A stretch of DNA of 64,000 nucleotides from Octopus vulgaris (GCA_951406725.2 OX597822.1:117242001-117306000), one strand, 5' to 3'. Shown: positions 500 to 38,196, counted from the first letter of the stretch. Notes: generated by a model not told the origin, from the letters alone. Translations and numbers: made by a program.

Positions 500-742
500 T
501 AGATCCAAGAAGGGTAGCATTAACTGAACCAATTAGTGTGCCGCAAGACGTATCGGTGTACTGGTTGTTTTCCACTGGGCAGTCTTCTAATTTGGCCGAC
601 TCTTGAGCAGTGGGGTTTTTAACGTTGATGTCTTCCGGAGTTAAGTCTTTGCATTTGTCGTTGTTTCTGTTGGTGAGGATCTCTCTTACACTCCCAGATA
701 TTTCGTTGAATTCCGTATATGTACAAACAACACAACTTCTAC
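500..742 (-). CDS. Duplicated exon 2 cassette; its exon 3 would lie left of the window
   Basis: Same translation and splice sites as the other copies. Confidence 0.72.
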
Positions 743-1069
743 CTGCAACGACTACAATAATAGAAATAGGGATCAGCACAACAACAACAACAAGAATTGA
801 AATTTCTAATTTTGGCACAGAACCAGCAATTTCCTGGAGAGTGGTTAGCTGACTGCATTGACCCCTGGGGTTCAACTTACTTTATTACACCTGAAAATTT
901 AAAAAGGTGAAGTCTACTTTTGTGGAATTTGTAAAGAGGCGGAAGTAATATCGTTAAGCATCTTGTCAGCTTATCACACTACTACTACTACTACCACCAC
1001 CACCACCACCACCACCACCAACACCACTACTACTACTACTACCACCACCACCACCACCACCACCACCAA

Positions 1070-1102
<33 letters not shown>

Positions 1103-1252
1103 CACTACCACAAATGGTTTAAAATTTTGCCGCAAGGGCAGCATGACTTAGTATCATCAGCATAAGATAGAATACTAGAATGCAGTGTGGAACTAAGCGA
1201 GGAAGGGAGAAACAAAAACTTATCTGCACATAACTGGATGGATGTGAGTGAA

Positions 1253-1838
1253 ATCATCATCATCATCATCATCATTTAGCGTCCGCTTTCCATGCTAGCA
1301 TGGGTTGGACGGTTCAACTGGGGTCTGTGAAGCTGGAAGGCTTCGTCAGGCCCAGTCAGATCTGGCAGTGTTTCTACGGCTGGATGCCCTTCCTAATGCC
1401 AATGTAAGATGGCTAAATCCATAATGAAGCACATGTTGGCCAGGTATCATCATCATCATCATCATCATCATTTAGCGTCCGCTTTCCATGCTAGCATGGG
1501 TTGGACGGGTCAACTGGGGTCTGTGAAGCTGGAAGGCTTCGTCAGGCCCAGTCAGATCTGGCAGTGTTTCTACGGCTGGATGCCCTTCCTAATGCCAATG
1601 TAAGATGGCTAAATCCATAATGAAGCACATGTTGGCCAGGTATCATCATCATCATCATCATCATCATTTAGCGTCCGCTTTCCATGCTAGCATGGGTTGG
1701 ACGGTTCAACTGGGGTCTGGGAAGCTGGAAGGCTTCGTCAGGCCCAGTCAGATCTGGCAGTGTTTCTACGGCTGGATGCCCTACCTAACGCCAATGTAAG
1801 ATGGCTAAATCCATAATGAAGCACATGTTGGCCAGGTA
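1253..1838. repeat. 196-bp tandem repeat of an RTE-tail fragment plus flank (3 units here and at 9383-9968; 4 units at 23238-24019)
   Basis: Unit: (CAT)n-ttagcgtccgctttccatgctagc...aagcacatgttggccaggta. Confidence 0.9.
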
Positions 1839-2271
1839 TGTTTATTTATATGGGTAGCCAAAAGGAAGTAAGATGGCTGATGGAAATGAAGACCGAGGTA
1901 GGATTTTGGAACAAAACATGATGCCTGGAGCTACTAGCAAAATTTGAAAGCCGATACGAACAAAATTGAAAAGTTGTTTTCAAAACAAGACCACAACAGG
2001 GTAGCTGAAAGGAACCCCCATCATTGCTTGAGTTTCGTCCCACTAAATCCACCCACAAGGCATAGCTTGAGGCTGTAGTAGAAGACAACTTAGCCAAGGT
2101 GCTATGCAGGGTGGCTGAACCTGGAGCCATGCAGGCACCAATAAAAAAACAATAAAAAGATGAAATAGGACTACACAGGATCACTGAAGTCTAGAAATTT
2201 TAGGAGCTTTGTAATAGGGAAGCGGAAGATAAAAAAAAACAAAAAAAACCCAGTTATTTCTATGCATTTTC

Positions 2272-2277
2272 TTTATT
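2272..2277 (-). terminator. Candidate polyadenylation signal AATAAA for exon 3 (equivalent sites near 10402 and 24453)
   Basis: AATAAA on the minus strand ~310 nt after the stop, followed by a U-rich tract. Confidence 0.45.
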
Positions 2278-2588
2278 AAACTTCCAATCTAGACAGATAT
2301 TATGAAGAAATGATTTTGATATAAATGTTCTTGTATTTGTTGAATTCACATTTTTATACAACGGTGAGAAATACAACAAAATATATTTCTTTGGTTGGAC
2401 TTGGTAATGAATAGTTTGATTGGTTGAATATACGGACAGACTGATAGATATACAGGTTATTAAAAATTTACAAGAATTTATATTTTATTTAAACAAGTAT
2501 AAAATGCTTATCAAAGTAAAGTACGCAATTGCGTTAACAAAATATAATCAAAAACAAGCATTTACAATTTCTTTTGTTCTCTGCTTAA

Positions 2589-2881
2589 TTAATAATCCTT
2601 GATCAGGGCCTGAGACAACATAGAAATGGTAAAACCTAAAAGTAGGAGACTATTTGAAGCATACATACTTCTGGCGGCAATAGATTCCTCGTTGCAAACA
2701 TGGTCATCACAGACACACCTGCGTCCTGAAAATGACAGAATTTTGTACTTGCTAATGCTAGAAAATATAACGGCCAGGTTTGATTTCATGTCTATTTCTG
2801 TATTGGTCCTTTCAGCACATATTCTTGGGCTATCTTTCTCAATTTCCAAACATCCACGGTGAAATACAGTCACTCTCGATT
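2589..2881 (-). CDS. Duplicated exon 3 cassette
   Basis: Same translation, acceptor and stop as 24770-25062. Confidence 0.75.
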
Positions 2882-4229
2882 CTACAAAGTAAAAATCATT
2901 TGCATTAGTTTTTTTAGTAGAATATTGTATCAACATCACATACTTAATGGATGTGTGTGATTAAAAACTACAAAGCTCCAGTATTTTGTCTAAGGGAAGT
3001 CTCTTTAAAAAAACAAAGTATAACTTCAAAGCTGTAGGCTGTGTTTTTCAACACTATACATCGAGAGGGAGACTTCTCTGAGATGAAATACTGCAGTTTT
3101 GTAGCATTTAACAAGACACATACATTAAGTATGTGAAATTGGTTTCAAATTTTGGCACAAGGCCAGCAACTTTGGGGAAGGGATAAGTTGATTACATTGA
3201 TCCCAGTACTCAAAGGGTACTTATTTCATTGACTCTGAAAGGATGAAAGGTAAAGTCGACCTTGGCAGAATTTGAACTCAGAATGTAAAAGATGGATGGA
3301 CTGCCACCAATCATTTCGTCTGGTGTGCTTATGATTCTGCCAGCTCACCATCTTACACTGAGTATGCGATATTGATAACATTTACATTATTGAGTCGCTT
3401 CTAAAACAAAAATCACATTTAAATTTAAGAATGTTCTCAAAATGGTTTTATACTAAGACATGCAAAGTACAAGCAGAAATACACGGTGACCTCTTGATTG
3501 AAGAAATGTAAGTTCCCAGATGTGTATTACGGTTGTGAAAACTTATCATGCTCACTTTATAGCAAATTTTATTTATTTATTTATTTTACATAATATTTTG
3601 TAAAAAATTAGAATTATTGATCACAGATTTTACAATAGGACAGTGATGGGTTCATTGATTATACGATGACAAAAGTGACAAAAGATTGCTTGTATTATAC
3701 AGGTAGAACAAATACCATAATGTGCCTCATTCAAAAGCACCTGTTTATCAGTTTCCTCATCCGTGTTTACATCTTTTACCAATATACATCACCAAAAGGT
3801 GTACATAAACACACATCCTCCAATACACAAACATATTTTATGAGAGATGATAAACAGATATTACACAACTTGACTTGTGGTCTTCCTCACTTGTTCAGGT
3901 GACGGTACAAATTGGTAGGTTCCAAACTAATATGATGGCAGTGTAACCTGTATAGGTCAGTGGTTGTTGTCTGCCAGGCAACAGAATGGCTGTGTCTTCT
4001 TTGAAATTGTCAAGGAGGAATTTAGGCATGTGTAAGTGGACTGAAACCATTTCTTTATTACCAGTTAAGATGTAAGATAGGATTGTAGCTGAGGTGAAGC
4101 TTCTGTATAAGAAGGCAAAGACTGCAGGACTTTGGTCAATTCATAGATGCCTTAATCTTATCTAATTCTGTTTATGAGATACAAGTGGTCTTTTCTTTTG
4201 TGATTTTCAAACACATGGATGCACGCGCG

Positions 4230-4279
<50 letters not shown>

Positions 4280-4795
4280 TACAGTGGAGCTAATATTTTA
4301 GTTGAGACACTTAGAACCAGATTTTTGTTTTGGATTGCAGAATGACTGTATATTTGCATTTCTAAATTGGAAACACCCTACCCACCCCCTGCCCAAGTTT
4401 ACACCTGTTTTCTTGTTTAGATTCACATGATATGTAACAGTTTCACTTTGGAAATGTTTTGCTTTCCATCAAAACAAATTCAGTTGTTACACTTTTTGCT
4501 TCAGATTTTTAATCACATCAAACAGCTGTATATTTCATATTGGTTTGCCATGTAAAGAAAGGCTGCTTGTCATCGTTGTTTTAAGAACCACATTTTCATG
4601 CTTGTGTGCATTGGACGGAGATTATTGAGGTTGATTTTCTAAATCTGGATGCCCTTCATATCACCAGCCCTCACCTGTTTTCAAGTAAGGTAATATTTCT
4701 CCATGACCAGATTTGTCTCAGAACATTGGAAATGAAGACCACTTGAGTGATGGTGACATTTGTTTTGAACTATTATGCAATGTCACAGGCAAAGT

Positions 4796-4840
<45 letters not shown>

Positions 4841-5024
4841 AAACACACGTGTGTGTAAAAGCACCCAGTACACATTGTAAAGCAGTTGGTGTTAGGAGGG
4901 GCATAGAGCCATAGAAACTATGTCAAAACAGACATGGACCTTGGGCAGCTCTTCAGTAGGTAAACTTCTGCCAAAGTATTTAACCCATGCCAGCATGGAA
5001 AACAGATGTTAAATGATGATGATG

Positions 5025-5069
<45 letters not shown>

Positions 5070-5074
<5 letters not shown>

Positions 5075-5440
5075 GGTGCAGACGGTATTTCAGAACAGAT
5101 ACATAGTTTTTAAAAAACGCTTATATAAAAGCAGGAGAAAAACATATTTTTATATCAAACATAAAACTAAATTGTCACCTTAATAATTTCATTCAATAAA
5201 ACCACCACAGGCATCATTAACTGCCTCTACGTGGCCAAATGTTGAGGGTGATGGGATCATGCAAACTGTCAGCCATTCATTCTGGTTCATATGAGCCTTG
5301 TGTGATGGGGCAGAATCTTGTTGAAAGACATAACGTCTTCCATTGCATACACTGTTGATCAAAAGTTTAACAACTTTATTCAGAACCTCAATATATGTAG
5401 CAGCATTCACCTTAAGGCCTTATGGAATGACAGGACCACA
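5070..5440 (-). mobile_element. Tc1/mariner-superfamily transposase fragment (copies ~13190-13560, ~27253-27625)
   Basis: NAATYIEVL..VVK.....CNGRRYVFQQDSAPSHKA (DDD/E-domain motif). The element end abuts (TA)n. Confidence 0.75.
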
Positions 5441-5756
5441 TATGATATCTCAAGGTGTATCTTTTTCTCTGATGAAATTGTGCTCATGTCACATAAATGC
5501 AAATTTAATGCACAAATTTGTAATTAAATTATTGAGTATTATTTGAAATGGCTGTAAGAAGCAAAGATGACCGATTTCTTAATAATAAAGAATTATTAAC
5601 TTCCTATTTTCCATTTTATTTTCTTCATTTAATTGGATAGAAACTATATGCTTAATATATATTTATCATTTTAAGGGAATGTCATTCCCCAATGATACTA
5701 GGTATTGAACCAGCATTTCCTTGGATGTAACCATCTCTTTACAAGGTAAACATACC

Positions 5757-7716: not shown

Positions 7717-7748
<32 letters not shown>

Positions 7749-8629: not shown

Positions 8630-8872
8630 TAGATCCAAGAAGGGTAGCATTAACTGAACCAATTAGTGTGCCGCAAGACGTATCGGTGTACTGGTTGTTT
8701 TCCACTGGGCAGTCTTCTAATTTGGCCGACTCTTGAGCAGTGGGGTTTTTAACGTTGATGTCTTCCGGAGTTAAGTCTTTGCATTTGTCGTTGTTTCTGT
8801 TGGTGAGGATCTCTCTTACACTCCCAGATATTTCGTTGAATTCCGTATATGTACAAACAACACAACTTCTAC
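8630..8872 (-). CDS. Duplicated exon 2 cassette (no own exon 1)
   Basis: Same translation and splice sites as 30809-31051. Confidence 0.75.
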
Positions 8873-9199
8873 CTGCAACGACTACAATAATAGAAATAGG
8901 GATCAGCACAACAACAACAACAAGAATTGAAATTTCTAATTTTGGCACAGAACCAGCAATTTCCTGGAGAGTGGTTAGCTGACTGCATTGACCCCTGGGG
9001 TTCAACTTACTTTATTACACCTGAAAATTTAAAAAGGTGAAGTCTACTTTTGTGGAATTTGTAAAGAGGCGGAAGTAATATCGTTAAGCATCTTGTCAGC
9101 TTATCACACTACTACTACTACTACCACCACCACCACCACCACCACCACCAACACCACTACTACTACTACTACCACCACCACCACCACCACCACCACCAA

Positions 9200-9232
<33 letters not shown>

Positions 9233-10718
9233 CACTACCACAAATGGTTTAAAATTTTGCCGCAAGGGCAGCATGACTTAGTATCATCAGCATAAGATAG
9301 AATACTAGAATGCAGTGTGGAACTAAGCGAGGAAGGGAGAAACAAAAACTTATCTGCACATAACTGGATGGATGTGAGTGAAATCATCATCATCATCATC
9401 ATCATTTAGCGTCCGCTTTCCATGCTAGCATGGGTTGGACGGTTCAACTGGGGTCTGTGAAGCTGGAAGGCTTCGTCAGGCCCAGTCAGATCTGGCAGTG
9501 TTTCTACGGCTGGATGCCCTTCCTAATGCCAATGTAAGATGGCTAAATCCATAATGAAGCACATGTTGGCCAGGTATCATCATCATCATCATCATCATCA
9601 TTTAGCGTCCGCTTTCCATGCTAGCATGGGTTGGACGGGTCAACTGGGGTCTGTGAAGCTGGAAGGCTTCGTCAGGCCCAGTCAGATCTGGCAGTGTTTC
9701 TACGGCTGGATGCCCTTCCTAATGCCAATGTAAGATGGCTAAATCCATAATGAAGCACATGTTGGCCAGGTATCATCATCATCATCATCATCATCATTTA
9801 GCGTCCGCTTTCCATGCTAGCATGGGTTGGACGGTTCAACTGGGGTCTGGGAAGCTGGAAGGCTTCGTCAGGCCCAGTCAGATCTGGCAGTGTTTCTACG
9901 GCTGGATGCCCTACCTAACGCCAATGTAAGATGGCTAAATCCATAATGAAGCACATGTTGGCCAGGTATGTTTATTTATATGGGTAGCCAAAAGGAAGTA
10001 AGATGGCTGATGGAAATGAAGACCGAGGTAGGATTTTGGAACAAAACATGATGCCTGGAGCTACTAGCAAAATTTGAAAGCCGATACGAACAAAATTGAA
10101 AAGTTGTTTTCAAAACAAGACCACAACAGGGTAGCTGAAAGGAACCCCCATCATTGCTTGAGTTTCGTCCCACTAAATCCACCCACAAGGCATAGCTTGA
10201 GGCTGTAGTAGAAGACAACTTAGCCAAGGTGCTATGCAGGGTGGCTGAACCTGGAGCCATGCAGGCACCAATAAAAAAACAATAAAAAGATGAAATAGGA
10301 CTACACAGGATCACTGAAGTCTAGAAATTTTAGGAGCTTTGTAATAGGGAAGCGGAAGATAAAAAAAAACAAAAAAAACCCAGTTATTTCTATGCATTTT
10401 CTTTATTAAACTTCCAATCTAGACAGATATTATGAAGAAATGATTTTGATATAAATGTTCTTGTATTTGTTGAATTCACATTTTTATACAACGGTGAGAA
10501 ATACAACAAAATATATTTCTTTGGTTGGACTTGGTAATGAATAGTTTGATTGGTTGAATATACGGACAGACTGATAGATATACAGGTTATTAAAAATTTA
10601 CAAGAATTTATATTTTATTTAAACAAGTATAAAATGCTTATCAAAGTAAAGTACGCAATTGCGTTAACAAAATATAATCAAAAACAAGCATTTACAATTT
10701 CTTTTGTTCTCTGCTTAA

Positions 10719-11011
10719 TTAATAATCCTTGATCAGGGCCTGAGACAACATAGAAATGGTAAAACCTAAAAGTAGGAGACTATTTGAAGCATACATACTT
10801 CTGGCGGCAATAGATTCCTCGTTGCAAACATGGTCATCACAGACACACCTGCGTCCTGAAAATGACAGAATTTTGTACTTGCTAATGCTAGAAAATATAA
10901 CGGCCAGGTTTGATTTCATGTCTATTTCTGTATTGGTCCTTTCAGCACATATTCTTGGGCTATCTTTCTCAATTTCCAAACATCCACGGTGAAATACAGT
11001 CACTCTCGATT
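10719..11011 (-). CDS. Duplicated exon 3 cassette
   Basis: Same translation, acceptor and stop as 24770-25062. Confidence 0.75.
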
Positions 11012-12358: not shown

Positions 12359-12408
<50 letters not shown>

Positions 12409-12924: not shown

Positions 12925-12967
<43 letters not shown>

Positions 12968-16942: not shown

Positions 16943-17185
16943 TAGATCCAAGAAGGGTAGCATTAACTGAACCAATTAGTGTGCCGCAAGACGTATCGGT
17001 GTACTGGTTGTTTTCCACTGGGCAGTCTTCTAATTTGGCCGACTCTTGAGCAGTGGGGTTTTTAACGTTGATGTCTTCCGGAGTTAAGTCTTTGCATTTG
17101 TCGTTGTTTCTGTTGGTGAGGATCTCTCTTACACTCCCAGATATTTCGTTGAATTCCGTATATGTACAAACAACACAACTTCTAC
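16943..17185 (-). CDS. Duplicated exon 2 cassette (no own exon 1)
   Basis: Same translation and splice sites as 30809-31051. Confidence 0.75.
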
Positions 17186-17506
17186 CTGCAACGACTACAA
17201 TAATAGAAATAGGGATCAGCACAACAACAACAACAAGAATTGAAATTTCTAATTTTGGCACAGAACCAGCAATTTCCTGGAGAGTGGTTAGCTGACTGCA
17301 TTGACCCCTGGGGTTCAACTTACTTTATTACACCTGAAAATTTAAAAAGGTGAAGTCTACTTTTGTGGAATTTGTAAAGAGGCGGAAGTAATATCGTTAA
17401 GCATCTTGTCAGCTTATCACACTACTACTACTACTACCACCACCACCACCACCACCACCACCAACACCACTACTACTACTACTACCACCACCACCACCAC
17501 CACCAA

Positions 17507-20074: not shown

Positions 20075-21310
20075 CCCACCCACCCATCATGTTCAAAAAC
20101 CTGCTGAAAGATGTCAGCAAGAGGATCACGAACCTATCCAAGAGATTTTTGAGATGCAACACGCAACTATAATGAGGCATTAGCTGCTAGCAGGTTTAGG
20201 GATCGCATCTCCTACATGCCAGGCCCTAACACCCACAGAAGGAAGCACCATAGAAATATCACTTGGTTTCTCCCTCAACTTCTTCCACAACATAAAAATG
20301 TGTGTAGGTAAGGTATTCGTTAGACCAGTAGGTAAACACTTCACACAATCACAGAGCTATGAATGCACTTTCAACAGGCAAAACCTAATGGTCCCTTTTA
20401 GCTGTGCCCCCAATATAAAGAGAATTCTAGTTAACACACCTAAGCCATGAGTGAAGGTGTGATGTTCATGCAGGGTCTACAACAGATGCCCAGTGGGGGG
20501 GGGGGGGGCATTGCTAAACAAAGGAAGTTGTCTATGAAGTTGAGGTGGTAGCAGACCCTAGTAGCAACAGTAGCAGCTTCTCCAATGACAACGGCAGGAA
20601 TAAGAGCAGCAGCACAAATGATGATGACTATAATACCATCAACAACACCACCACCACCACCACCGATTCTCCCCTTTGCCAGCATTCACAGCACCAGCAC
20701 CAATACCAACATCACCAGCACCAGCAACATTGCTGTCCAAGAATTTAGACCTGGAGCTCTCCATTTCCAGCGACGACTTCGAGGGCCACTTCCCAGTGGT
20801 GTGGGGCGTCAACGAAGAGCCCTCAACTACAACAAGACGACCAAAGTTTTTTTTCTTTTCCAAGGTCTGGGGTCTCCCGCCCCTAAGCCCTAGACCATCA
20901 CCTTATCACCCTTACCCATCTTGTTGCTTAACAACAACAACAACAGCAGCAACAGTGGTCGCATTAGCATCAACATCACCAACACTCACACATGAAGATA
21001 CATCAGATGTTCCAAGAACATGTTCAAGCAGCGCCCCTCCAACCACAGATCCTCTTTCAGGATTGCAGAGAGGAGATACACTATGTCCCTAGCCAGCCAT
21101 GTATGGCAGCTGAAAGATGAAGGGACTCCACATGGAAGATCTTAGAAAATTCAGGCCCCTATATCAATGGGACCAAGCACTGTAAATTGTGCATAACCAA
21201 ACAGTCAAGGATATTAAAGACACCTTCAATGTGGGGAAAATTCTAAACACCAGGATGGAATTCTTCAAACCCTGCATATACTTCTGGAAATTCCTGTTGG
21301 CGTCCTGGAT
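20075..21310 (+). pseudogene. Decayed Penelope-like element (RT C-terminus/GIY-YIG region) with low-complexity insert (copy ~33950-35475)
   Basis: Remnants HPPIMFKNL...KRITNLS, RNITWF, WKILENSGPY.NG.K.CKLC and LNTRMEF..PC...KFLL match the PLE endonuclease C-terminal pattern. Confidence 0.65.
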
Positions 21311-22539: not shown

Positions 22540-23190
22540 TCATCATCGTCGTTTAACGTCCGCTTTCCATGCTCCAATCTGATCTGGCAAAATTTCTACA
22601 GGTGGATGCCCTTCCTAATGCCAACCACTCCTAGAGTGTAAGGGGTGCTTTTTTAACATGCCACTGGCATGGGTGCCAGTCAGGTGGTACTAGCATCAAC
22701 CACGCTCGAATGTTGTTTTTCACGTGTCATTAAGGCGACGCTGGCAACGATCGCGCTTGAATGGTGCTTTTTACGTGCCACCGGTTCGGGAGCCAGTCAG
22801 CGGCCCTGGCAACGATCACGCTTGGATGGTTATTTTAGCGTTCCACTGGCACGAGAGCCAGTCAGCGGCCCTGGCAACGATCACGCTTGGATGGTGATTT
22901 TAACGTTCGAGTGGCCCGGGTGCCAATCAGGCGGTACTGTCATCGGCCACGCCAGTGATTTTGATTTCACTCACCTCAACAGGTTTTCGCAAGCAAAGTC
23001 TATGGTCTCACTTGGCTTGCCGGGTCTTCTCAAGCACAGTATATCTCCAAAGGTCTTGGTCACTAGTCACTGCCTTGGTGAAGCCCAATGTTCAAAGGTC
23101 GAGTTTCACGACCTCATCCCAGGTCTTCCAGGGTCTACCTCTTCCACGGGTTCCCTCAACTGCTAGGGTATGACACTTTTTCACATAGCT
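22540..23190 (-). mobile_element. RTE LINE 3' fragment cut by the duplication junction (longer copy ~36665-37370)
   Basis: Reverse complement of the RTE 3' region with (CAT)n tail. Confidence 0.75.
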
Positions 23191-24769
23191 TATCTTCACA
23201 TAGCTTATCTGCACATAACTGGATGGATGTGAGTGAAATCATCATCATCATCATCATCATTTAGCGTCCGCTTTCCATGCTAGCATGGGTTGGACGGTTC
23301 AACTGGGGTCTGTGAAGCTGGAAGGCTTCGTCAGGCCCAGTCAGATCTGGCAGTGTTTCTACGGCTGGATGCCCTTCCTAATGCCAATGTAAGATGGCTA
23401 AATCCATAATGAAGCACATGTTGGCCAGGTATCATCATCATCATCATCATCATCATTTAGCGTCCGCTTTCCATGCTAGCATGGGTTGGACGGGTCAACT
23501 GGGGTCTGTGAAGCTGGAAGGCTTCGTCAGGCCCAGTCAGATCTGGCAGTGTTTCTACGGCTGGATGCCCTTCCTAATGCCAATGTAAGATGGCTAAATC
23601 CATAATGAAGCACATGTTGGCCAGGTATCATCATCATCATCATCATCATCATTTAGCGTCCGCTTTCCATGCTAGCATGGGTTGGACGGTTCAACTGGGG
23701 TCTGGGAAGTTGGAAGGCTTCGTCAGGCCCAGTCAGATCTGGCAGTGTTTCTACGGCTGGATGCCCTTCCTAATGCCAATGTAAGATGGCTAAATCCATA
23801 ATGAAGCACATGTTGGCCAGGTATCATCATCATCATCATCATCATCATTTAGCGTCCGCTTTCCATGCTAGCATGGGTTGGACGGTTCAACTGGGGTCTG
23901 GGAAGCTGGAAGGCTTCGTCAGGCCCAGTCAGATCTGGCAGTGTTTCTACGGCTGGATGCCCTACCTAACGCCAATGTAAGATGGCTAAATCCATAATGA
24001 AGCACATGTTGGCCAGGTATGTTTATTTATATGGGTAGCCAAAAGGAAGTAAGATGGCTGATGGAAATGAAGACCGAGGTAGGATTTTGGAACAAAACAT
24101 GATGCCTGGAGCTACTAGCAAAATTTGAAAGCCGATACGAACAAAATTGAAAAGTTGTTTTCAAAACAAGACCACAACAGGGTAGCTGAAAGGAACCCCC
24201 ATCATTGCTTGAGTTTCGTCCCACTAAATCCACCCACAAGGCATAGCTTGAGGCTGTAGTAGAAGACAACTTAGCCAAGGTGCTATGCAGGGTGGCTGAA
24301 CCTGGAGCCATGCAGGCACCAATAAAAAAACAATAAAAAGATGAAATAGGACTACACAGGATCACTGAAGTCTAGAAATTTTAGGAGCTTTGTAATAGGT
24401 AAGCGGAAGATAAAAAAAAACAAAAAAAACCCAGTTATTTCTATGCATTTTCTTTATTAAACTTCCAATCTAGACAGATATTATGAAGAAATGATTTTGA
24501 TATAAATGTTCTTGTATTTGTTGAATTCACATTTTTATACAACGGTGAGAAATACAACAAAATATATTTCTTTGGTTGGACTTGGTAATGAATAGTTTGA
24601 TTGGTTGAATATACGGACAGACTGATAGATATACAGGTTATTAAAAATTTACAAGAATTTATATTTTATTTAAACAAGTATAAAATGCTTATCAAAGTAA
24701 AGTACGCAATTGCGTTAACAAAATATAATCAAAAACAAGCATTTACAATTTCTTTTGTTCTCTGCTTAA

Positions 24770-25062
24770 TTAATAATCCTTGATCAGGGCCTGAGACAAC
24801 ATAGAAATGGTAAAACCTAAAAGTAGGAGACTATTTGAAGCATACATACTTCTGGCGGCAATAGATTCCTCGTTGCAAACATGGTCATCACAGACACACC
24901 TGCGTCCTGAAAATGACAGAATTTTGTACTTGCTAATGCTAGAAAATATAACGGCCAGGTTTGATTTCATGTCTATTTCTGTATTGGTCCTTTCAGCACA
25001 TATTCTTGGGCTATCTTTCTCAATTTCCAAACATCCACGGTGAAATACAGTCACTCTCGATT
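24770..25062 (-). CDS. Exon 3 (terminal) of Ly6/uPAR-like gene (proximal copy)
   Basis: Acceptor tttactttgtag|AA (phase 1). Encodes ...HRGC...RIC...RRCVCDDHVCN, then a small-residue spacer, a hydrophobic tail LLLLGFTISMLSQAL and a stop. This is the C-terminal CN motif of LU domains plus a GPI-signal-like tail. Confidence 0.9.
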
Positions 25063-26410
25063 CTACAAAGTAAAAATCATTTGCATTAGTTTTTTTAGTA
25101 GAATATTGTATCAACGTCACATACTTAATGGATGTGTGTGATTAAAAACTACAAAGCTCCAGTATTTTGTCTAAGGGAAGTCTCTTTAAAAAAACAAAGT
25201 ATAACTTCAAAGCTGTAGGCTGTGTTTTTCAACACTATACATCGAGAGGGAGACTTCTCTGAGATGAAATACTGCAGTTTTGTAGCATTTAACAAGACAC
25301 ATACATTAAGTATGTGAAATTGGTTTCAAATTTTGGCACAAGGCCAGCAACTTTGGGGAAGGGATAAGTTGATTACATTGATCCCAGTACTCAAAGGGTA
25401 CTTATTTCATTGACTCTGAAAGGATGAAAGGTAAAGTCGACCTTGGCAGAATTTGAACTCAGAATGTAAAAGATGGATGGACTGCCACCAATCATTTCGT
25501 CTGGTGTGCTTATGATTCTGCCAGCTCACCATCTTACACTGAGTATGCGATATTGATAACATTTACATTATTGAGTCGCTTCTAAAACAAAAATCACATT
25601 TAAATTTAAGAATGTTCTCAAAATGGTTTTATACTAAGACATGCAAAGTACAAGCAGAAATACACGGTGACCTCTTGATTGAAGAAATGTAAGTTCCCAG
25701 ATGTGTATTACGGTTGTGAAAACTTATCATGCTCACTTTATAGCAAATTTTATTTATTTATTTATTTTACATAATATTTTGTAAAAAATTAGAATTATTG
25801 ATCACAGATTTTACAATAGGACAGTGATGGGTTCATTGATTATACGATGACAAAAGTGACAAAAGATTGCTTGTATTATACAGGTAGAACAAATACCATA
25901 ATGTGCCTCATTCAAAAGCACCTGTTTATCAGTTTCCTCATCCGTGTTTACATCTTTTACCAATATACATCACCAAAAGGTGTACATAAACACACATCCT
26001 CCAATACACAAACATATTTTATGAGAGATGATAAACAGATATTACACAACTTGACTTGTGGTCTTCCTCACTTGTTCAGGTAACGGTACAAATTGGTAGG
26101 TTCCAAACTAATATGATGGCAGTGTAACCTGTATAGGTCAGTGGTTGTTGTCTGCCAGGCAACAGAATGGCTGTGTCTTCTTTGAAATTGTCAAGGAGGA
26201 ATTTAGGCATGTGTAAGTGGACTGAAACCATTTCTTTATTACCAGTTAAGATGTAAGATAGGATTGTAGCTGAGGTGAAGCTTCTGTATAAGAAGGCAAA
26301 GACTGCAGGACTTTGGTCAATTCATAGATGCCTTAATCTTATCTAATTCTGTTTATGAGATACAAGTGGTCTTTTCTTTTGTGATTTTCAAACACATGGA
26401 TGCACGCGCG

Positions 26411-26462
<52 letters not shown>

Positions 26463-26978
26463 TACAGTGGAGCTAATATTTTAGTTGAGACACTTAGAAC
26501 CAGATTTTTGTTTTGGATTGCAGAATGACTGTATATTTGCATTTCTAAATTGGAAACACCCTACCCACCCCCTGCCCAAGTTTACACCTGTTTTCTTGTT
26601 TAGATTCACATGATATGTAACAGTTTCACTTTGGAAATGTTTTGCTTTCCATCAAAACAAATTCAGTTGTTACACTTTTTGCTTCAGATTTTTAATCACA
26701 TCAAACAGCTGTATATTTCATATTGGTTTGCCATGTAAAGAAAGGCTGCTTGTCATCGTTGTTTTAAGAACCACATTTTCATGCTTGTGTGCATTGGACG
26801 GAGATTATTGAGGTTGATTTTCTAAATCTGGATGCCCTTCATATCACCAGCCCTCACCTGTTTTCAAGTAAGGTAATATTTCTCCATGACCAGATTTGTC
26901 TCAGAACATTGGAAATGAAGACCACTTGAGTGATGGTGACATTTGTTTTGAACTATTATGCAATATCACAGGCAAAGT

Positions 26979-27021
<43 letters not shown>

Positions 27022-27207
27022 AAACACACACGTGTGTGTAAAAGCACCCAGTACACATTGTAAAGCAGTTGGTGTTAGGAGGGGCATAGAGCCATAGAAA
27101 CTATGTCAAAACAGACATGGACCTTGGGCAGCTCTTCAGTAGGTAAACTTCTGCCAAAGTATTTAACCCATGCCAGCATGGAAAACAGATGTTAAATGAT
27201 GATGATG

Positions 27208-27257
<50 letters not shown>

Positions 27258-30200
27258 GGTGCAGACGGTATTTCAGAACAGATACATAGTTTTTAAAAAA
27301 ACGCTTATATAAAAGCAGGAGAAAAACATATTTTTATATCAAACATAAAACTAAATTGTCACCTTAATAATTTCATTCAATAAAACCACCACAGGCATCA
27401 TTAACTGCCTCTACGTGGCCAAATGTTGAGGGTGATGGGATCATGCAAACTGTCAGCCATTCATTCTGGTTCATATGAGCCTTGTGTGATGGGGCAGAAT
27501 CTTGTTGAAAGACATAACGTCTTCCATTGCATACACTGTTGATCAAAAGTTTAACAACTTTATTCAGAACCTCAATATATGTAGCAGCATTCACCTTAAG
27601 GCCTTATGGAATGACAGGACCACATATGATATCTCAAGGTGTATCTTTTTCTCTGATGAAATTGTGCTCATGTCACATAAATGCAAATTTAATGCACAAA
27701 TTTGTAATTAAATTATTGAGTATTATTTGAAATGGCTGTAAGAAGCAAAGATGACCGATTTCTTAATAATAAAGAATTATTAACTTCCTATTTTCCATTT
27801 TATTTTCTTCATTTAATTGGATAGAAACTATATGCTTAATATATACTTATCATTTTAAGGGAATGTCATTCCCCAATGATACTAGGTATTGAACCAGCAT
27901 TTCCTTGGATGTAACCATCTCTTTACAAGGTAAACATACCCTCTATGGAGACCCAGGAAGACATGGGAGTGAGGTGGTGAAGCATGACCTTCGAATATTG
28001 GGCCTCACAGAGGCAATGACAAAAGATCGAGACCTCTGGAGATATGCTGTGGTTGAGAAGACCTGGGAAATAAAGTGAGTCCACAGCTGTAACCTACCCA
28101 AGTGTTGCATAACCAGCCCACTCAAAAAGTACCTTGGATCGTAGGGCAACATGCCCTGCTTGAGGAGACTGATTGAGTCAAGTACATCAAAACCAAAATC
28201 AAATGGAAATTGTAGTTGTGGTCCCTGTGCCGGTGGCATGTAAAAAGCACCATCTGAATGTGGATGATGCCAATGCCGCCATGACTGGCTTCCGTGCTGG
28301 TGGCACATAAAAAGCACCAACCAATCGTGGTCATTGCCAGCCCCCTGGCCCCTGTGCCGGTGGCACATAAAAAGTACCCACTACACTGTTGGAGTGGTTG
28401 GCATTAGGAGGGTCATCTAGCTGTAGAAACACTGCCAGATCAGACTGGAGCCTAGTGCAGCCTCCTGGCTTTCCAGACCCCAGTCAAACCCTCCAAGTCA
28501 TGCCAACATGAAAAATGGATGTTAAACGATGACGATGATATATATGTAGACACAGTTTGACTGTAATAGTTAAAAAGTTTTTACTCCACAACTACAGTAT
28601 TCTCGGTTCAATCCTGCTGTGTAGAATATGAGGCAAAAGTTATTTTCTATAGCCTTGGATCCACCCATAACTTGTGAGTAAAATTGAGTGGACAGAAATT
28701 TTATAGAAGTACCTTGGGTAGATTGTAATTATAATTCAAAAGCTACATCTTTGTCACATAGTCTCACATTGATTCTGCATGAGAATTACATTAAAAGTAC
28801 ACAGGTTAGTGAAATATTTCGTTTCTGGATTTGGTTTGCAAGATTCTTTATGTGAGTTCGTGTGTTGAAGCATATTCTGTTGTGTCTGGGGAGAGTCATT
28901 TTCTTTTTGTGCCTTATAATGTAACACACTCACCAATGAAATTTCCACTTTTTTCTTATTGTTATTGTCCTAAAATTTTCGTTGCATCTTGCAACCTTTT
29001 CAATAGTTTTGACTCTCAAAACGTTGCAAGATGCAACGAAAATTTTAGGAAAATAAAAATAAGTGGAAATTTTACCTGTGAGTGTGTTACATTATAAGGC
29101 ACAAAAAGAAAATGACTCTCCCCAGACACAACAGGTTAGTGAAATGCTTGACCACTAACAGGTTAATTCAGATTCAGATAATCCAGTTGATTGAATATCA
29201 GGCATTTGTGTATGTATGTATATGTGTGTACATATATGTGTGTGTGAGTACATGTGTGTATGTGTCTGTGTATATTATATTTATAACAGTTATATAGGCA
29301 CAGTTGCTTCCCAGCCACATGGTTTTGAGTTCAGTCCCACTGTGTGGCACCTTAGCCAGGTGTCTTTTACAATAGGCTCTGGTTAACAAAAGCGTTGTGA
29401 GAGCATTTGATAGCAAGAAACTGGGTGAAGCCAGTCGCATGTATGCATGTATGTATGCATGTATGTATGCTTGTGAGAGTGTGTGTATGTTTGTGTCTTT
29501 TTGTCTTAAAATTATGTGATTATTGTAAATGAATGTTGTTCATTTTGAATATTTTGCAAAAATGTTTGGCCAATGGAGAAATATTACCTTGCTTGGAAAA
29601 AATTCAGTGTCAATGACTGGAAAGAGATTTGGTCATAGAAAGATCTGGCTCAAATAAACTTCCATGCAAGAATGGACATTAAAACAATCTTTGATCTCTC
29701 TTTCACTTGTTTCAGTCGTTAGTCTGTGGCCCTGCTGGGGCACCACCTTGAAGGATTTTAGCTGAACAAATTTATCCTAAAACTTATTTTTTTAAGCCTG
29801 GTACTTATTCTATCATTCTCTTTTGCTGAACCACTATGTTATGAAGATGTAAACACACCAACACTGGTTGTCAAGCGGTGGTGGGGGACAAATACAGGTA
29901 GGCACACACACACACACACACACACACAAGCGCACATGCGACACACATCTTTCATTTTCTGTCTACCAAATCCACTGACAAGACTTTATTGGCCTTTGAC
30001 CTGAGGCTACAGCTGAAGGTACTTTCCCAAGGTGCCATGTAGTGGGACTGAACCCATAACCATGTGGTTGGGAAGCAAGCTTCTTACCACAAAGCCACAT
30101 GATGATAAATGATGAATGATGACGATGTAATCAGTTAATATTAATTTCAAAATTGTGGCACAAGGCCAGCAATTTTGAGGGTAGGAGATAAGTTGATTAC

Positions 30201-30808
30201 ATCAAGCCCAACATTCAAGTCGTACTTATTTTATCGACCATGAAAGGATAAAAGGCAAAGTCAACCTTGGTTGAATTTGAACTTGAATTTGAAAGTTCAA
30301 ATGTGGGACAAAATGCCACTAAGCAATTTGCTTAGTGTGATAACGATTCTTATTTCTTTATTGCCCACAAGGAGCTAAACACAGAGGGGACAAACAAGGA
30401 CAGACAAACGGATTAAGTCAATCAGATCGACCCCAGTGTGTAACTGGTACTTAATTTATCGACCCTGAAAGGATGAAAGGCAAAGTCGACCTCGGCGGAA
30501 TTTGAACTCGGAACGTAACTGGTCCCATATATATATATATATAATTTCTTTACTACCCACAAGGAGCTAAACACAGAGGGGACAAACAAGGACAGACAAA
30601 GGGATTAAGTCAATTAGATTGACCCCAGTGCGTAACTGGTACTTAATTTATCGACCCTGAAAGGATGAAAGGCAAAGTCGATCTCGGCGGAATTTGAACT
30701 CGGAACGTAGCGACAGACAAAATGCCCCTAAGCATTTTGCCAGTGTGATAATGATTGTGCCAACTCACCACCTTAGTTCTCAATTTATATTAATATTAAT
30801 TAACTTAC

Positions 30809-31051
30809 TAGATCCAAGAAGGGTAGCATTAACTGAACCAATTAGTGTGCCGCAAGACGTATCGGTGTACTGGTTGTTTTCCACTGGGCAGTCTTCTAAT
30901 TTGGCCGACTCTTGAGCAGTGGGGTTTTTAACGTTGATGTCTTCCGGAGTTAAGTCTTTGCATTTGTCGTTGTTTCTGTTGGTGAGGATCTCTCTTACAC
31001 TCCCAGATATTTCGTTGAATTCCGTATATGTACAAACAACACAACTTCTAC
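30809..31051 (-). CDS. Exon 2 of Ly6/uPAR-like gene (proximal copy)
   Basis: Acceptor gtcgttgcag|GT and donor A|gtaagt. 243 nt, phase 1-1. Encodes RSCVVCTY...DKC...EDC...TSCGTL...NATLLGS (5 Cys, N-glycosylation sequon NAT). Confidence 0.88.
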
Positions 31052-31373
31052 CTGCAACGACTACAATAATAGAAATAGGGATCAGCACAACAACAACAAC
31101 AAGAATTGAAATTTCTAATTTTGGCACAGAACCAGCAATTTCCTGGAGAGTGGTTAGCTGACTGCATTGACCCCTGGGGTTCAACTTACTTTATTACACC
31201 TGAAAATTTAAAAAGGTGAAGTCTACTTTTGTGGAATTTGTAAAGAGGCGGAAGTAATATCGTTAAGCATCTTGTCAGCTTATCACACTACTACTACTAC
31301 TACCACCACCACCACCACCACCACCACCACCAACACCACTACTACTACTACTACCACCACCACCACCACCACC

Positions 31374-31411
<38 letters not shown>

Positions 31412-31914
31412 CACTACCACAAATGGTTTAAAATTTTGCCGCAAGGGCAGCAGTTGTTGGGGGTGGGGGACTAGTTGATTACACTGACCCCAATGTTTCA
31501 CTGGTACTTAATTTATCGACCCTGAAAGGATGGAAGGCAAAGTCGACCTCAGTGGAATTAGAACTCAGAAAGTAGCGACAGACAAAATGCCCTTAAGCAT
31601 TTCGCCTGATGTGCTGACAGTTCTGCCAGCTGGCCACCTTAAATAATCATAATAATAATAATAATGATCTTTTCTGATACGGCTGCAAGACCTAGAATTT
31701 GGAGGGAAGAGTCTAATCAAAGACATCGAACCCAGGGTTCCTCTGGTACATATTTTCCTGACCCCGAGAAGATGAAATGCAAAGTTAACCTTGGCAGGAT
31801 TTCAACTTAGAATGTAAAGACAGAAGAAATGCCACTCAGCATTTGGTCAATCTTACCCCCACCACTGCCACCGACGACACCACCACCACCACAACAACAA
31901 CAATAACAACAGCA

Positions 31915-31967
<53 letters not shown>

Positions 31968-34900
31968 GTGTCTCTAAAAGAAATGGAGAAACTCTCAAAA
32001 TACAAAGACCTGGAAATAGAGGTTACTAGAATGTGGAATCTGAAAACAGAAACAATTCCTATCATAGTAGGTGCATTAGGCATGATAAAAAAATATTCAG
32101 ACAAATACATAACAAAAACACCAGGACTTACAAACACATATAACATACAGAAAATTGCACTACTAGGCACTGCACACATCCTACGCAGAACACTTTCCAT
32201 ACAATAACCATCAGAGCATCACAACAAATCACAGCACATACCCAAGGCACACAGAGCTGCGCTCGGTAGTGAAGTGAAAGCACGCTATAAAAATAAAACT
32301 ACAGAATAATGATAATAATAATAACAACAACAATAAGCAACATTTAATTTATTGATAAGTGAACTAGAATCAATACCAAACTGGATGCTGGAAGGACAAA
32401 CCACCCAAGTTTCCAGGAACAAAGACACCATACAGCCAAAAAATTACAGGCCTTATAAAATAATGTGCTTATCAACAATGTAGAAAATCCTTCCATCGGT
32501 CATCCATAACTGGCTTCTAATACACCTGGAAAACAACAATGTTTTACCAGAAGAGCAAAAGCAGTGCCAGAAAGGGATTTTTGGTTGTAAGGAGCAGCTT
32601 CTGGTAAAATGAGACATTACAGGGGGCCGTAAGAGAAAGACAATTCTCAGAAGGACTTGGATTGATTAACAGAAAGCATTCAACAGAGTTCCACACTCAC
32701 TGATAGAGTGGCTAACTGGCTTCCGTGCCAGTGGCACATAAAAGGGCACCATTTGAGTGTGATCATTACCAGTGTCACCTTACTGGCACCTGTGCTGGTG
32801 GCATGTGTAAAAAGATTTGAGTGAGGTTATTGCCAGTACCGCCTGACTGGCCCCCGTGCCATAGGGTGCCAAGAGCACCATCCGAGCGTGATCGTTGCCA
32901 GAGCGACCAACTGGCTTCCATGCCAGTGGCACATAAAAGGGCATCATTCAAGCGTGATCGTTACCAATGTCACCTTACTGGCACCTGTGCCGGTGGCATG
33001 TGTAAAAAGATTCGAGTGAGGTCATTGCCAGTACTGCCTGACTGGCCCCCACTACACTCTCGGTGTGGTTGGCATTAGGAAGGGCATTCGGCTGTAGAAC
33101 TCTGCCAGATCAAGACTGGAGCCTGGAGCAGCCATCTGGTTTGCCAGTCTTCAGTCAAATCATCCAACCCATGCTAGCATGGAAAGCGGACGTTAAACAA
33201 TGATGATGATGATGATGATTGATACTAGAATCTCTCCACACAAATAAAGTAACTCCAACATTACTAAAATATATTAAACATACAATAGGAAACTGGAAAA
33301 CCAGTATAATGCTGTAAAATGAATCACAAGTCATTAAAACCTGCCCTATACACATATGAAGATGGTTTTCTCAAGGTGACTGTCACCCCTGCTGTTCTAG
33401 CTTGCTCTGGCTCCACTAACAAACTTTTCAAATGAAACTATCATGGGTCATAGATGCTATCGATGAACAATAAACCATCTACTAAAAAGGATGATTTTAA
33501 AATTTTTACTAAAAACACCACGGAACAGAGAAACCTTCTCAAAATTGTCCATAGCTTCATGAAGGACATTGGAATGAGGATGGGGCTGGACAAATATGCC
33601 TTAGTGACACTGAGAAGAGGCAAATTAATCAGCACTGGAAACACGGCACTTGAAATAGACACAGAAATCAGAGAATGAGACTGCAATTGCCCACACAAAT
33701 GTCTTGGAGTAGACAAAACAGCTAAAATACAACACACAGAAATGAAAGAGAACATTAGGTGAGAATATAATAGAAGAGTTAGATTAATATCAAACACTGA
33801 ACTCAAGATAATAAGGGTAAGTACACATGCTAGCCACTCACTCATAAATTACATCTTCAACACATAAACTGGAAGAGCAGGGAATTGAGAAACTTAGAAA
33901 AACTGAAAAACTATTAACAGCTGACACACATCAACACGGCCGCCTGCCACCCACCCCACCCATCATGTTCAAAAACCTGCTGAAAGATGTCAGCAAGAGG
34001 ATCACGAACCTATCCAAGAGATTTTTGAGATGCAACACGCAACTATAATGAGGCATTAGCTGCTAGCAGGTTTAGGGATCGCATCTCCTACATGCCAGGC
34101 CCTAACACCCACAGAAGGAAGCACCATAGAAATATCACTTGGTTTCTCCCTCAACTTCTTCCACAACATAAAAATGTGTGTAGGTAAGGTATTCGTTAGA
34201 CCAGAAGGTAAACACTTCACACAATCACAGAGCTATGAATGCACTTTCAACAGGCAAAACCTAATGGTCCCTTTTAGCTGTGCCCCCAATATAAAGAGAA
34301 TTCTAGTTAACACACCTAAGCCATGAGTGAAGGTGTGATGTTCATGCAGGGTCTACAACAGATGCCCAGTGGGGGGGGGGGGGGGGGGGCATTGCTAAAC
34401 AAAGGAAGTTGTCTATGAAGTTGAGGTGGTAGCAGACCCTAGTAGCAACAGTAGCAGCTTCTCCAATGACAACGGCAGGAATAAGAGCAGCAGCACAAAT
34501 GATGATAACAATTACAGCAGCAACAACACCAGCCACCAGCAACAGTGCCAATAACAGCTCCAGCAATACTAATGATGATGACTATAATACCATCAACACC
34601 ACCACCACCACCACCACCGATTCTCCCCTTTGCCAGCATTCACAGCACCAGCACCAATACCAACATCACCAGCCACCACCACCACCACCACCGATTCTCC
34701 CCTTTGCCAGCATTCACAGCACCAGCACCAATACCAACATCACCAGCCACCACCACCACCACCACCGATGCCAGCATTCACAGCACCAGCACCAATACCA
34801 ACATCACCAGCCACCACCACCACCACCACCGATTCTCCCCTTTGCCAGCATTCACAGCACCAGCACCAATACCAACATCACCAGCACCAGCAACATTGCT

Positions 34901-37900
34901 GTCCAAGAATTTAGACCTGGAGCTCTCCATTTCCAGCGACGACTTCGAGGGCCACTTCCCAGTGGTGTGGGGCGTCAACGAAGAGCCTCAACTACAACAA
35001 GATGACCAAAGTTTTTTTTCTTTTCCAAGGTCTGGGGTCTCCCGCCCCTAAGCCCTAGACCATCACCTTATCACCCTTACCCATCTTGTTGCTTAACAAC
35101 AACAACAACAGCAGCAACAGTGGTCGCATTAGCATCAACATCACCAACACTCACACATGAAGATACATCAGATGTTCCAAGAACATGTTCAAGCAGCGCC
35201 CCTCCAACCACAGATCCTCTTTCAGGATTGCAGAGAGGAGATACACTATGTCCCTAGCCAGCCATGTATGGCAGCTGAAAGATGAAGGGACTCCACATGG
35301 AAGATCTTAGAAAATTCAGGCCCCTATATCAATGGGACCAAGCACTGTAAATTGTGCATAACCAAACAGTCAAGGATATTAAAGACACCTTCAATGTGGG
35401 GAAAATTCTTAACACCAGGATGGAATTCTTCAAACCCTGCATATACTTCTGGAAATTCCTGTTGGCGTCCTGGATCCAACAGTCATACGGAGACAGTACC
35501 TTGATGTTGACCTATAGTTACAAAGTCTTTTCCCCCCTCCATTTTTCTAGAGAGGCCACAGGCCAACGGGTTTAGGGTTTGAGGAAATGTTGTCAAGCTT
35601 TAAAACTAGGGTAACCTCATAAAACCAGCCATATCTATCTATGAAGAATTTAGGGTGGGAGTAATTTTAAAATGCCGATTTTCGCCAATTTTTTTGCAGA
35701 TTCGTGTTCTCCGTAGCCGAAAACAGGGGGTTTATGTTTGAAAAAAAAAAATAAATAGGCATAGGAGTAGCTTGCTTATGAACCACATGGTTCCAGGTAC
35801 TGCGTGTTTTTGTGTGGGTGTGTGTGGGGGAAGTCTTGCCCCCCAACCTCCACCCATTACCTCCTAATGTTTTACTTTTAGCCTTTATGAAAGCGGGTAA
35901 GTTTTTCCAAGAACACTGTCGTTTAGCTGTTGTTTCTAGCATGTCGGGAAATTTAAATTTTGAAACCCTAATTTTTGGCCCAAATCGCATTCTACTATAT
36001 CGAAAACAGATCCGAAAAAATTTTTTTGGAGGGGAAAAAAACCCCACTGAAAACAGGTGGTGTACACATTCTTTACTTCCGCCGGTTTATTTATAGTGAT
36101 CAAATGTGTGTGCGTACCTAAAGCGCCTTCGCTCCATCAAATCAACGTTCCCTGATCAAATTGCACGCTGGTGATCTTGTGTTACTAGTCACACGACTGT
36201 CACCTGTAAACCACGTGTGTTTATTTACATTTGGGAAGAAGATCGTCGGTTTCCTTAAAAAATGGGGTTGTGGGGAAAAGGGATCTTTTGAAATCAGCGT
36301 GAAAACGAGAGAGAGAGAGAGAGAGAGCGATTGTATGAGGTAGGTTCTTTTGGAGTTTGCGGGAAGAGGAAGAATTGATATGTGTGCATGCGTGTGTGTG
36401 TATATTTATACATACATAGAAGCATAAATGTATATTTATACATACATACACACACATATATATATAGGTACTACTAGTAGCGTAGACTGGACCCAGTTTG
36501 CGCGTGTGCGCGAACCGGGTCCAGTCTACGCTACTAGTACCACTTTGTATTGTGTATTTTATGTGTACATGTAATATGTACACATATATATACACATATA
36601 TACATGCACTAGCATTATGACCCGGCAACGACGGGTCTTTAATGCTAGTATATATATATATATATCATCGTCGTTTAACGTCCGCTTTCCATGCTCCAAT
36701 CTGATCTGGCAAAATTTCTACAGGTGGATGCCCTTCCTAATGCCAACCACTCCTAGAGTGTAAGGGGTGCTTTTTTAACATGCCACTGGCATGGGTGCCA
36801 GTCAGGTGGTACTAGCATCAACCACGCTCGAATGTTGTTTTTCACGTGTCATTAAGGCGACGCTGGCAACGATCGCGCTTGAATGGTGCTTTTTACGTGC
36901 CACCGGTTCGGGAGCCAGTCAGCGGCCCTGGCAACGATCACGCTTGGATGGTTATTTTAGCGTTCCACTGGCACGAGAGCCAGTCAGCGGCCCTGGCAAC
37001 GATCACGCTTGGATGGTGATTTTAACGTTCGAGTGGCCCGGGTGCCAATCAGGCGGTACTGTCATCGGCCACGCCAGTGATTTTGATTTCACTCACCTCA
37101 ACAGGTTTTCGCAAGCAAAGTCTATGGTCTCACTTGGCTTGCCGGGTCTTCTCAAGCACAGTATATCTCCAAAGGTCTTGGTCACTAGTCACTGCCTTGG
37201 TGAAGCCCAATGTTCAAAGGTCGAGCTTCACGACCTCATCCCAGGTCTTCCAGGGTCTACCTCTTCCACGGGTTCCCTCAACTGCTAGGGTATGACACTT
37301 TTTCACATAGCTGTCCTCATCCATACGCAACGCACGACCATACCAGCGCCGTCGTCTCTCTTGCACACCAGCAACATTACTCTCCCTGTCTCTTCACACA
37401 CATGAGAGAGATAGAGAGATACTCGTAACACGAGAAAATAAACACAAACTCGTAAAACAATGAAAAAGTTAGATTTCATACATACAACCATAAACATGTA
37501 TCGTGATTACAGGTTTTTAAATTGTTATATATACTTTGATCATAGGTAAAATGCAAAGAAGTGGGCTTTTGGCTAAGAGGAAAGTGTAGTTTTTAAATTA
37601 CTAAAACATAAGCACGAAATTTCAGACCGTATCTCGAAATTTGTGACCATACTTTACAATCTCTATATACGCGAAATCCTGTAATTCGAGTTAGCTGTGA
37701 ATCATTTATGCATGTATGTAAATATATGCACATTTATACATGTTGCGATATGGCCTGACATTTACAGCAAAAGAGAAAAGCCCCTCTGGTTTAATTCCGT
37801 TTTATAATTATGACTGAAGCTAGGCTTAATATTAATTGTAGTATATGGAAATCCAAAACACCAGCCAAAGTCTCACATGACAGTATCGATAATAAGAATA

Positions 37901-38129
37901 AATCGAATAATATGAATAAAGAAATAATAATAATAGTAAAAAGGTTTATAAAACAAAAATGCAAGCTGGAATTCGGTTACATTATTCTAAACGCTTGAAA
38001 GCAGGTCAGTTAGGTGGGTCCCTGTCAAATAGTTGAAATATTAAAAGCTTCTTATTCAGTATGCATTATCAATTAAACATTATCTAATAAAATTGAGAGA
38101 GGAATAAGGAAATACTCATAGTTTCTCAC

Positions 38130-38196
38130 CATTAACGATTACAGGTAAAATGGCACAGAATTCAAAGAGCGCGAAGTATATCGGTTTTCCCATCAT
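38130..38196 (-). CDS. Exon 1 (signal peptide) of Ly6/uPAR three-finger, Quiver/Sleepless-like gene
   Basis: Minus strand reads ATGATGGGAAAA..., giving MMGKPIYFALFEFCAILPVIVN+G, followed by donor G|gtgaga (phase 1). The phase matches the exon 2 acceptor, giving ...VIVNG-RSCVVC. It is too short for the ORF track and is the only copy in the window. Confidence 0.8.

Follow-up and report, generated by a model that had tools for sequence, protein, structure and literature searches.

A single leader exon and four identical exon pairs in a predicted quiver-like Ly6 gene of Octopus vulgaris, probably a young partial tandem duplication

Can a gene with one leader exon use several downstream sets of the exons that complete its protein, or are the additional sets silent products of duplication? 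The question is raised by a stretch of 64,000 nucleotides of the Octopus vulgaris genome (GCA_951406725.2 OX597822.1:117242001-117306000; G000:C9:117242001-117306000 in our numbering), hereafter the window, which comes from an assembly of 2.8 Gb in 227 contigs. The minus strand of the window carries a gene of the Ly6/three-finger superfamily in which one signal-peptide exon is followed by repeated copies of exons 2 and 3. An earlier note on this DNA proposed a nascent array with a constant leader and variable cassettes, and named silent promoterless duplicates as the alternative. We judge that alternative to be the better reading, and estimate at about two in three the probability that the locus is a young, probably polymorphic partial tandem duplication that has left silent orphan exon pairs.

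Exon 1 (38130-38196, minus strand, as are all exons and junctions given below) has 67 nt, encodes the signal peptide and ends in a phase-1 donor. It is present once in the window and once in the whole assembly. Exon 2, encoding cysteines 1-5 of the Ly6/uPAR (LU) domain, has four copies in the assembly, all inside the window, at 30809-31060 (copy A), 16943-17194 (copy B), 8630-8881 (copy C) and 500-751 (copy D). The coding part of exon 3 encodes cysteines 6-10, the CN motif, a hydrophobic tail of the glycosylphosphatidylinositol (GPI) type and the stop codon. It also has four copies in the assembly, three of them in the window, at 24770-25062 (A), 10719-11011 (B) and 2589-2881 (C), with starts at 25062, 11011 and 2881. 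The fourth, belonging to copy D, is in the adjoining stretch L005, 5.2 kb beyond the left edge of the window; the native 3' flank is there too. Since this fourth exon 3 was found and unique sequence returns about 7.7 kb left of the window, where the array ends, the array consists of exactly four cassettes in the assembly. No second copy of any exon was found elsewhere in the assembly. The duplicated cassettes are 99.4-99.7% identical over 7-15 kb, which is not a chance likeness; all four exon 2 copies are identical, and from exon 3 with 40 nt of its intron through the untranslated region (UTR) to the equivalent of 24430 there are 0 differences among the four copies. The single leader and the four and three copies counted earlier within the window were thus all located; the array does reach past the window edge, as had been said, but it is not open-ended.

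All splice sites of the cassettes are intact and in phase 1, in agreement with the compatibility that the earlier note had reported. Exon 2 could be spliced at either of two AG acceptors separated by 9 nt, and its phase 1-1 is the same with both. Because the Octopus sinensis orthologue P0001 fits the upstream acceptor, exon 2 is 252 nt long and not 243 nt, the length first given, which corresponds to the second acceptor (31051 in copy A). Every cassette has a terminal exon 3, a stop codon, a GPI-type tail and three AATAAA hexamers; in copy A these lie in the 3' UTR and flank (24022-24670) at 24670, 24458 and 24027, and they recur in every copy. Splicing of exon 1 to any distal cassette would give the same protein. 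Joining of exon 2 to exon 2 is in frame but adds a half domain with an unpaired cysteine. The exon 2 frame has no methionine, and the first one is found 30 residues into exon 3.

Two breakpoints delimit the repeated units, one of 14.1 kb whose junction (J1) occurs once and one of 8.13 kb whose junction (J2) occurs twice. At J1 (23189-23204, the start of copy B, seen in the assembly sequence) the 3' flank of copy A is joined to intron 1, 0.8 kb into it, at the equivalent of 37312. The junction holds an insert of 15 nt, made of 9 nt that repeat the right flank and 6 nt that repeat the left, with a 2-nt microhomology, and the insert stands between two words that match at 10 of 12 positions. At J2, flank sequence 74 bp farther than that at J1 is joined 0.4 kb before exon 2, at the equivalent of 31452, with an insert of 3 nt. 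This junction starts copy C at 9274-9276 and, with the same letters, copy D at 1144-1146. Both units begin within intron 1, as had been stated, and exon 1 is single, so the copies are promoterless. A 196-bp minisatellite resembling a short interspersed element (SINE) is present in the 3' flanks, at 23238-24020, 9383-9969 and 1253-1839 in the window and at about 2360-3730 in L005, with 4, 3, 3 and 7 units in copies A, B, C and D; a 192-bp unit is repeated 1.9, 2.9, 1.9 and 1.9 times, respectively. Both breakpoints lie within about 110 bp of the end of the 196-bp minisatellite, so that this repeat is a possible marker of a fragile site.

Over about 7,410 aligned bases, copy A has 14, 16 and 14 substitutions relative to B, C and D, respectively (about 0.2%), and in a further 5,561 bp it has 11 relative to B. 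Among themselves B, C and D show 0-1 substitutions together with indels of 1-2 nt in homopolymers and microsatellites. As A differs from all three while B, C and D are nearly identical, J2 would have acted on B-type DNA. A heterozygosity above 1.1% is given for O. vulgaris in the available part of one report (PMC6472339); if this value applies, all duplication events are younger than the average allele pair, because the divergence of A from B, C and D is well below it. The single-nucleotide marker suggested earlier for assigning reads to copies (2219 versus 24400) is real, but it splits A from B, C and D only and does not tell these three apart. Position 24400 is about 55 nt past the second AATAAA and therefore most mature mRNA would exclude it. 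A separate length difference was observed in intron 1, where a GC-rich tandem repeat of 74 bp (34591-34889) has about four units in A and is about 285 bp shorter in B (about 20630-20720).

The insert copied from both flanks and the words matching at 10 of 12 positions suggest that J1 may have formed by template switching or by end joining of the polymerase-theta type. Flank-templated inserts at tandem duplication junctions of C. elegans are ascribed to polymerase-theta end joining in the portion of a study available to us (PMC8654963). J2 would have arisen by end joining on B-type sequence; its second occurrence would then stem from unequal crossing-over, or else from an over-count in the assembly.

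Exon 3 is contained in 20 public sequencing runs, none recorded as RNA and several RNA by guess, which has no bearing on expression; we compared the contigs of four of them, three DNA-like (X1, X3 and X5) and one RNA-like (X12), over 9230-9560. The pieces are 32 listed out of about 37,000; in contigs of this kind minor branches are lost, and depth cannot be taken as copy number. In X1 a contig of 63 nt equals 9244-9306 with 0 differences at a depth of 14.6, and thus contains J2; its size fits a junction-only contig built from 31-letter words. A flank contig of 129 nt halts at 9277, the point at which J2 and native flank diverge, in both X1 and X5, and no J2 contig was found among the pieces listed for X5, of which 80% of the run was read. 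In X3, by contrast, a 232-nt contig continues 98 letters beyond 9277 unbroken and with 3 differences, and J2 was not seen in the 76% of the run that was read. J2 is thus present in sample S1, probable in S4 and not seen in S2 (76% of the S2 run read). Since 3 differences fall in 99 nt, S2 may be another population. X12, which is RNA by guess, has no contig over 9278-9409 and weighs neither way. Flank-to-native depth ratios (3.29 in X5 and 2.24 in X1, where 3.27 and 2.14 are expected for two and one array-bearing chromosomes) were not used as copy number; they involve an unlisted piece and conflict with the J2 depth in X1.

Head-to-tail copies with a novel junction are therefore present in raw sequence data, as defines a copy-number variant, and J2 is real and probably segregating. 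An assembly artefact had been named as what would overturn the earlier proposal. With one of its junctions found in contigs of short reads, the array is more than such an artefact; that junction is backed by the exact contig of X1 and the fork of X5, and was not seen in the 76% of X3 that was read.

What protein would the gene encode? The closest proteins are O. sinensis LOC115216548 (P0001, 203 aa) and a 'Protein quiver' of O. bimaculoides (P0002). P0001 differs from the window by two residues in exon 2 and none in exon 3. In the collection searched there is one protein per species; the orthologues of O. sinensis, O. bimaculoides and Argonauta are single-domain proteins of 189-203 aa, and the relatives in Argonauta, a bivalve and a chiton are all single-domain as well (183-209 aa). 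Alignment A1 comprises nine of eleven proteins and has nine invariant columns, eight of which are cysteines. P0006 and P0011, left out of it, had been candidates for multi-LU relatives on account of matches in several stretches, and were rejected as unrelated repeat frames. The cysteines of P0001 are C29, 32, 56, 80, 92, 117, 128, 162, 164 and 169, with N170 after the tenth. The octopus protein is hydrophobic at both termini, the N-terminal hydropathy peak covering residues 5-32 of P0001.

In the available sections of PMC6600238, LU genes are defined by three exons, a signal-peptide exon followed by two phase-1 exons, with the GPI signal in exon 3, and this plan is found here. The family assignment made earlier is supported by the same plan, the ten cysteines and the CN motif. 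The disulfide pattern given there is 1-5, 2-3, 4-6, 7-8 and 9-10, so that bond 4-6 spans the border of exons 2 and 3 (PMC6600238). With five cysteines in each of the two exons and the canonical 4-6 bond linking one exon to the other, exon 2 by itself makes up half a domain. The border falls at residue 107; by the hairpin in the model (88-103/106-121), intron 2 would interrupt loop 2 at its tip, as expected of LU genes. The predicted model has a mean confidence score (pLDDT) of 71.8 and gave only five matches with Z>=5 among 48,161 solved chains, all of them LU proteins. Their Z scores are 5.2-6.0, best for TEX101 (Z 6.0, root-mean-square deviation 5.2, 82 aligned residues), and values below 8 are weak. 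A Foldseek search with the model returned no match at E<=0.001.

The Pfam family QVR (PF17064) is the sole recurring match, obtained with six of the nine aligned relatives, which reach E 2.9e-6. P0001 (18.3 bits) and P0002 (15.4 bits) stay below its cut-off of 27.3, Pfam searches with single exons gave nothing useful, and the first Atlas matches (0.83-0.85) are leads only. Quiver/sleepless (QVR/SSS) is described as a regulator of Shaker channels and nicotinic receptors in the text available of PMC4735452, and is likewise a GPI-type Ly6 protein with ten cysteines (PMC4735452). It differs in that the octopus protein falls below the Pfam cut-off and has a domain of about 140 aa. The gene would thus be a quiver-like Ly6 gene by family, a name that is taken from its sequence and not from a channel or receptor function. 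A QVR profile search of the assembly gave one match elsewhere and missed this gene, and so cannot count paralogues. That match, at G000:C5:50083824-50083940, is a separate QVR-family exon above the Pfam cut-off, possibly the true quiver orthologue. An Rfam search over 23000-40400 had 0 matches. No paper on this gene was found through the locus and protein identifiers of the orthologues, nor among the matches listed for octopus Ly6 quiver.

We propose that two recent tandem duplications would have produced three copies of exons 2 and 3 without exon 1. Transcription from the single promoter would end at the poly(A) signals of copy A; on that premise the locus would make one GPI-anchored Ly6 protein and the extra cassettes would be orphan exons, raw material awaiting loss, conversion or leader capture. 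A variable-cassette array would be recognized by coding differences, and here the four exon 2 and the four exon 3 copies are identical. The constant-leader/variable-cassette proposal is not sustained by these sequences: coding differences are absent, the last exon of every cassette is terminal and has three AATAAA, and another animal appears to be without the duplication.

Several observations count against silent orphan exons in a real array. Silence of the distal cassettes is no more than likely, and identical exons cannot be told apart; in human LY6K, whose exon 3 is triplicated, all three forms are reported to be used in the accessible part of a study (PMC10421932). The J2 contig of X1 extends 30 letters to either side of the insert, one below the 31-letter bridging rule. 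At 14.6 it reaches about half the depth of the other branch (31.8), as would be expected of a single J2 and not of two. X1 and X5 come from different samples and different studies, and both are marked as possible sources of the assembly. At 9349, where J1 would fork, no break was found in the flank contigs of X1 or X5, which speaks mildly against J1 there, though minor branches drop.

The J2 depth in X1 and the absence of a fork at J1 in X1 and X5 also suit an array that is partly a product of assembly, with J2 real but counted once too often (copy C being an extra loop), or with A and B-D being two haplotypes placed head to tail, or both. It is also in favour of this that B, C and D differ almost solely by homopolymer and microsatellite indels of 1-2 nt, and that the 0.2% between A and the others is within the allelic range. 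Such an origin is rather unlikely in our estimate: the flank-templated 15-nt insert of J1 is a repair signature that a haplotype join does not need (available part of PMC8654963), no exon has a second copy elsewhere in the assembly, and the X5 ratio of 3.29 would agree with the 3.27 expected for an array on both chromosomes if the unlisted piece of depth 67.8 is the native branch, contig depth being no copy number. Alternatively the duplication may be real and its distal cassettes used by read-through, yielding the same protein, a half-domain extension or a protein of two to four domains of the uPAR/CD177 type. We consider this unlikely. The intact phase-1 splice sites are in its favour, as is a donor-like 9-mer in exon 3 (24844-24852) directly after the tenth cysteine, whose phase-1 site at 24849 lies between the last cysteine and the GPI-type tail and is the only in-frame route, as a candidate, to a tandem LU-LU product, a route that the earlier note does not mention. 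Precedents are the LYPD2-SLURP1 exon 1-2-2-3 transcript and LY6K (PMC10421932, in the part available), and multi-LU proteins retain a two-exon unit per domain (PMC6600238, likewise).

The 24849 donor, however, agrees with the consensus at six of nine positions, a score equalled by 62 of 388 GT sites in intron 2, while the true donors reach 7/9; a stronger donor (8/9) at 24899, 50 nt upstream, is out of frame. Read-through must also pass three AATAAA, the relatives found at 111-356 aa and at 169-2000 aa include no fused form, and joining exon 2 to exon 2 leaves a free cysteine, as disulfide 4-6 crosses the exon border (PMC6600238). The bolder version, in which read-through and the 24849 donor already give carriers a two- to four-domain GPI-anchored protein, a nascent multi-LU or LY6K-like shared-leader array within one population, seems to us quite unlikely. 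Finally, each cassette might be a leader-independent mini-gene: the last part of intron 1, if translated on into exon 2, gives a hydrophobic run like a signal peptide, and a transcript that began in the upstream SINE array might yield a secreted or anchored protein from a GTG start. A hydrophobic run of 21 residues (31061-31127, minus strand, with equivalents in B-D) does end where the mature domain naturally begins, in all four copies, and its score is equalled by only 1 of 429 other acceptor-like sites. The run nevertheless has GTG, CTG and TTG in frame and no ATG, and consists of a SINE-tail word and a GTT microsatellite that is hydrophobic in every frame; the word has 12 matches in 124 kb, at five distinct places plus the array copies. 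The run is older than the duplication, any promoter is hypothetical, and the test was chosen after the feature had been seen, so that we regard this possibility as very improbable.

Silent orphan exon pairs have close parallels. Orphan and duplicated exons are common in Ly6 and three-finger toxin (3FTX) clusters; those of snakes contain orphan exons and a duplicated exon 3, the sections available give no sign that the redundant exons yield protein, and human LY6K has an exon 3 duplicated twice, with three apparently functional forms (PMC10421932). The vertebrate LY6/3FTX clusters, LY6K and LYPD2-SLURP1 share with the octopus locus the superfamily, the three-exon phase-1 plan and extra downstream exons on one leader, and an exon1-exon2-exon2-exon3 chimera is already described for LYPD2-SLURP1 (PMC10421932, same sections). 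The octopus locus differs, as far as its sequence tells, in that exons 2 and 3 are duplicated together, are identical, probably segregate and belong to a mollusc. LYNX1/SLURP2 was considered as a shared-leader precedent and dropped, being called a mistaken idea in the available text of PMC4839075. In uPAR, C4.4A and CD177 a two-exon unit is likewise repeated, but the inner units are without GPI tail and stop, both of which the octopus cassettes keep (PMC6600238, in the sections available). Segregating partial tandem duplications are common in flies, and those of D. yakuba and D. simulans are similarly young, polymorphic and broken inside genes, with promoterless pieces that are not expected to make new frames (PMC4069613, in part); the octopus locus differs from them in that a single gene holds a nested pair of breakpoints, with four cassettes.

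Drosophila mod(mdg4) and lola, in the accounts available, also have one common 5' part that faces several alternative 3' ends. The alternative poly(A) use of IgM and IgD likewise combines a common 5' part with alternative 3' ends. In all of these the variable parts have diverged and are conserved, and there are dedicated promoters, trans-splicing or a regulated choice of poly(A) site; nothing of this kind was seen at the octopus locus. Judged by analogy, the ordinary and the bold reading both have named precedents.

If the extra cassettes are silent orphan exons, the locus is one more young partial duplication in a family known for such debris, and matters little in itself. In practice it calls for caution when genes are annotated or reads are mapped here, as four identical exon sets stand behind a single leader. 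Read-through products, if there are any, would make it a natural experiment on the origin of multi-domain Ly6 proteins and of shared-leader arrays, in which carriers could be compared with non-carriers; read-through is the sole reading that would surprise a specialist.

Three further elements were observed near the gene. A full-length long terminal repeat (LTR) retrotransposon occupies 40397-46260 on the minus strand, the same strand as the gene, 2.2 kb upstream of exon 1, with two LTRs of 584 bp that are 100% identical, a 4-bp target duplication and open frames of 325 and 1081 aa. By its domain order we take it to be of the Ty3/gypsy type. It is a very recent insertion beside the promoter of the gene. 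Two short elements with long inverted ends, at 39980-40190 and 28877-29134, resemble miniature inverted-repeat transposable elements by eye and by self-comparison.

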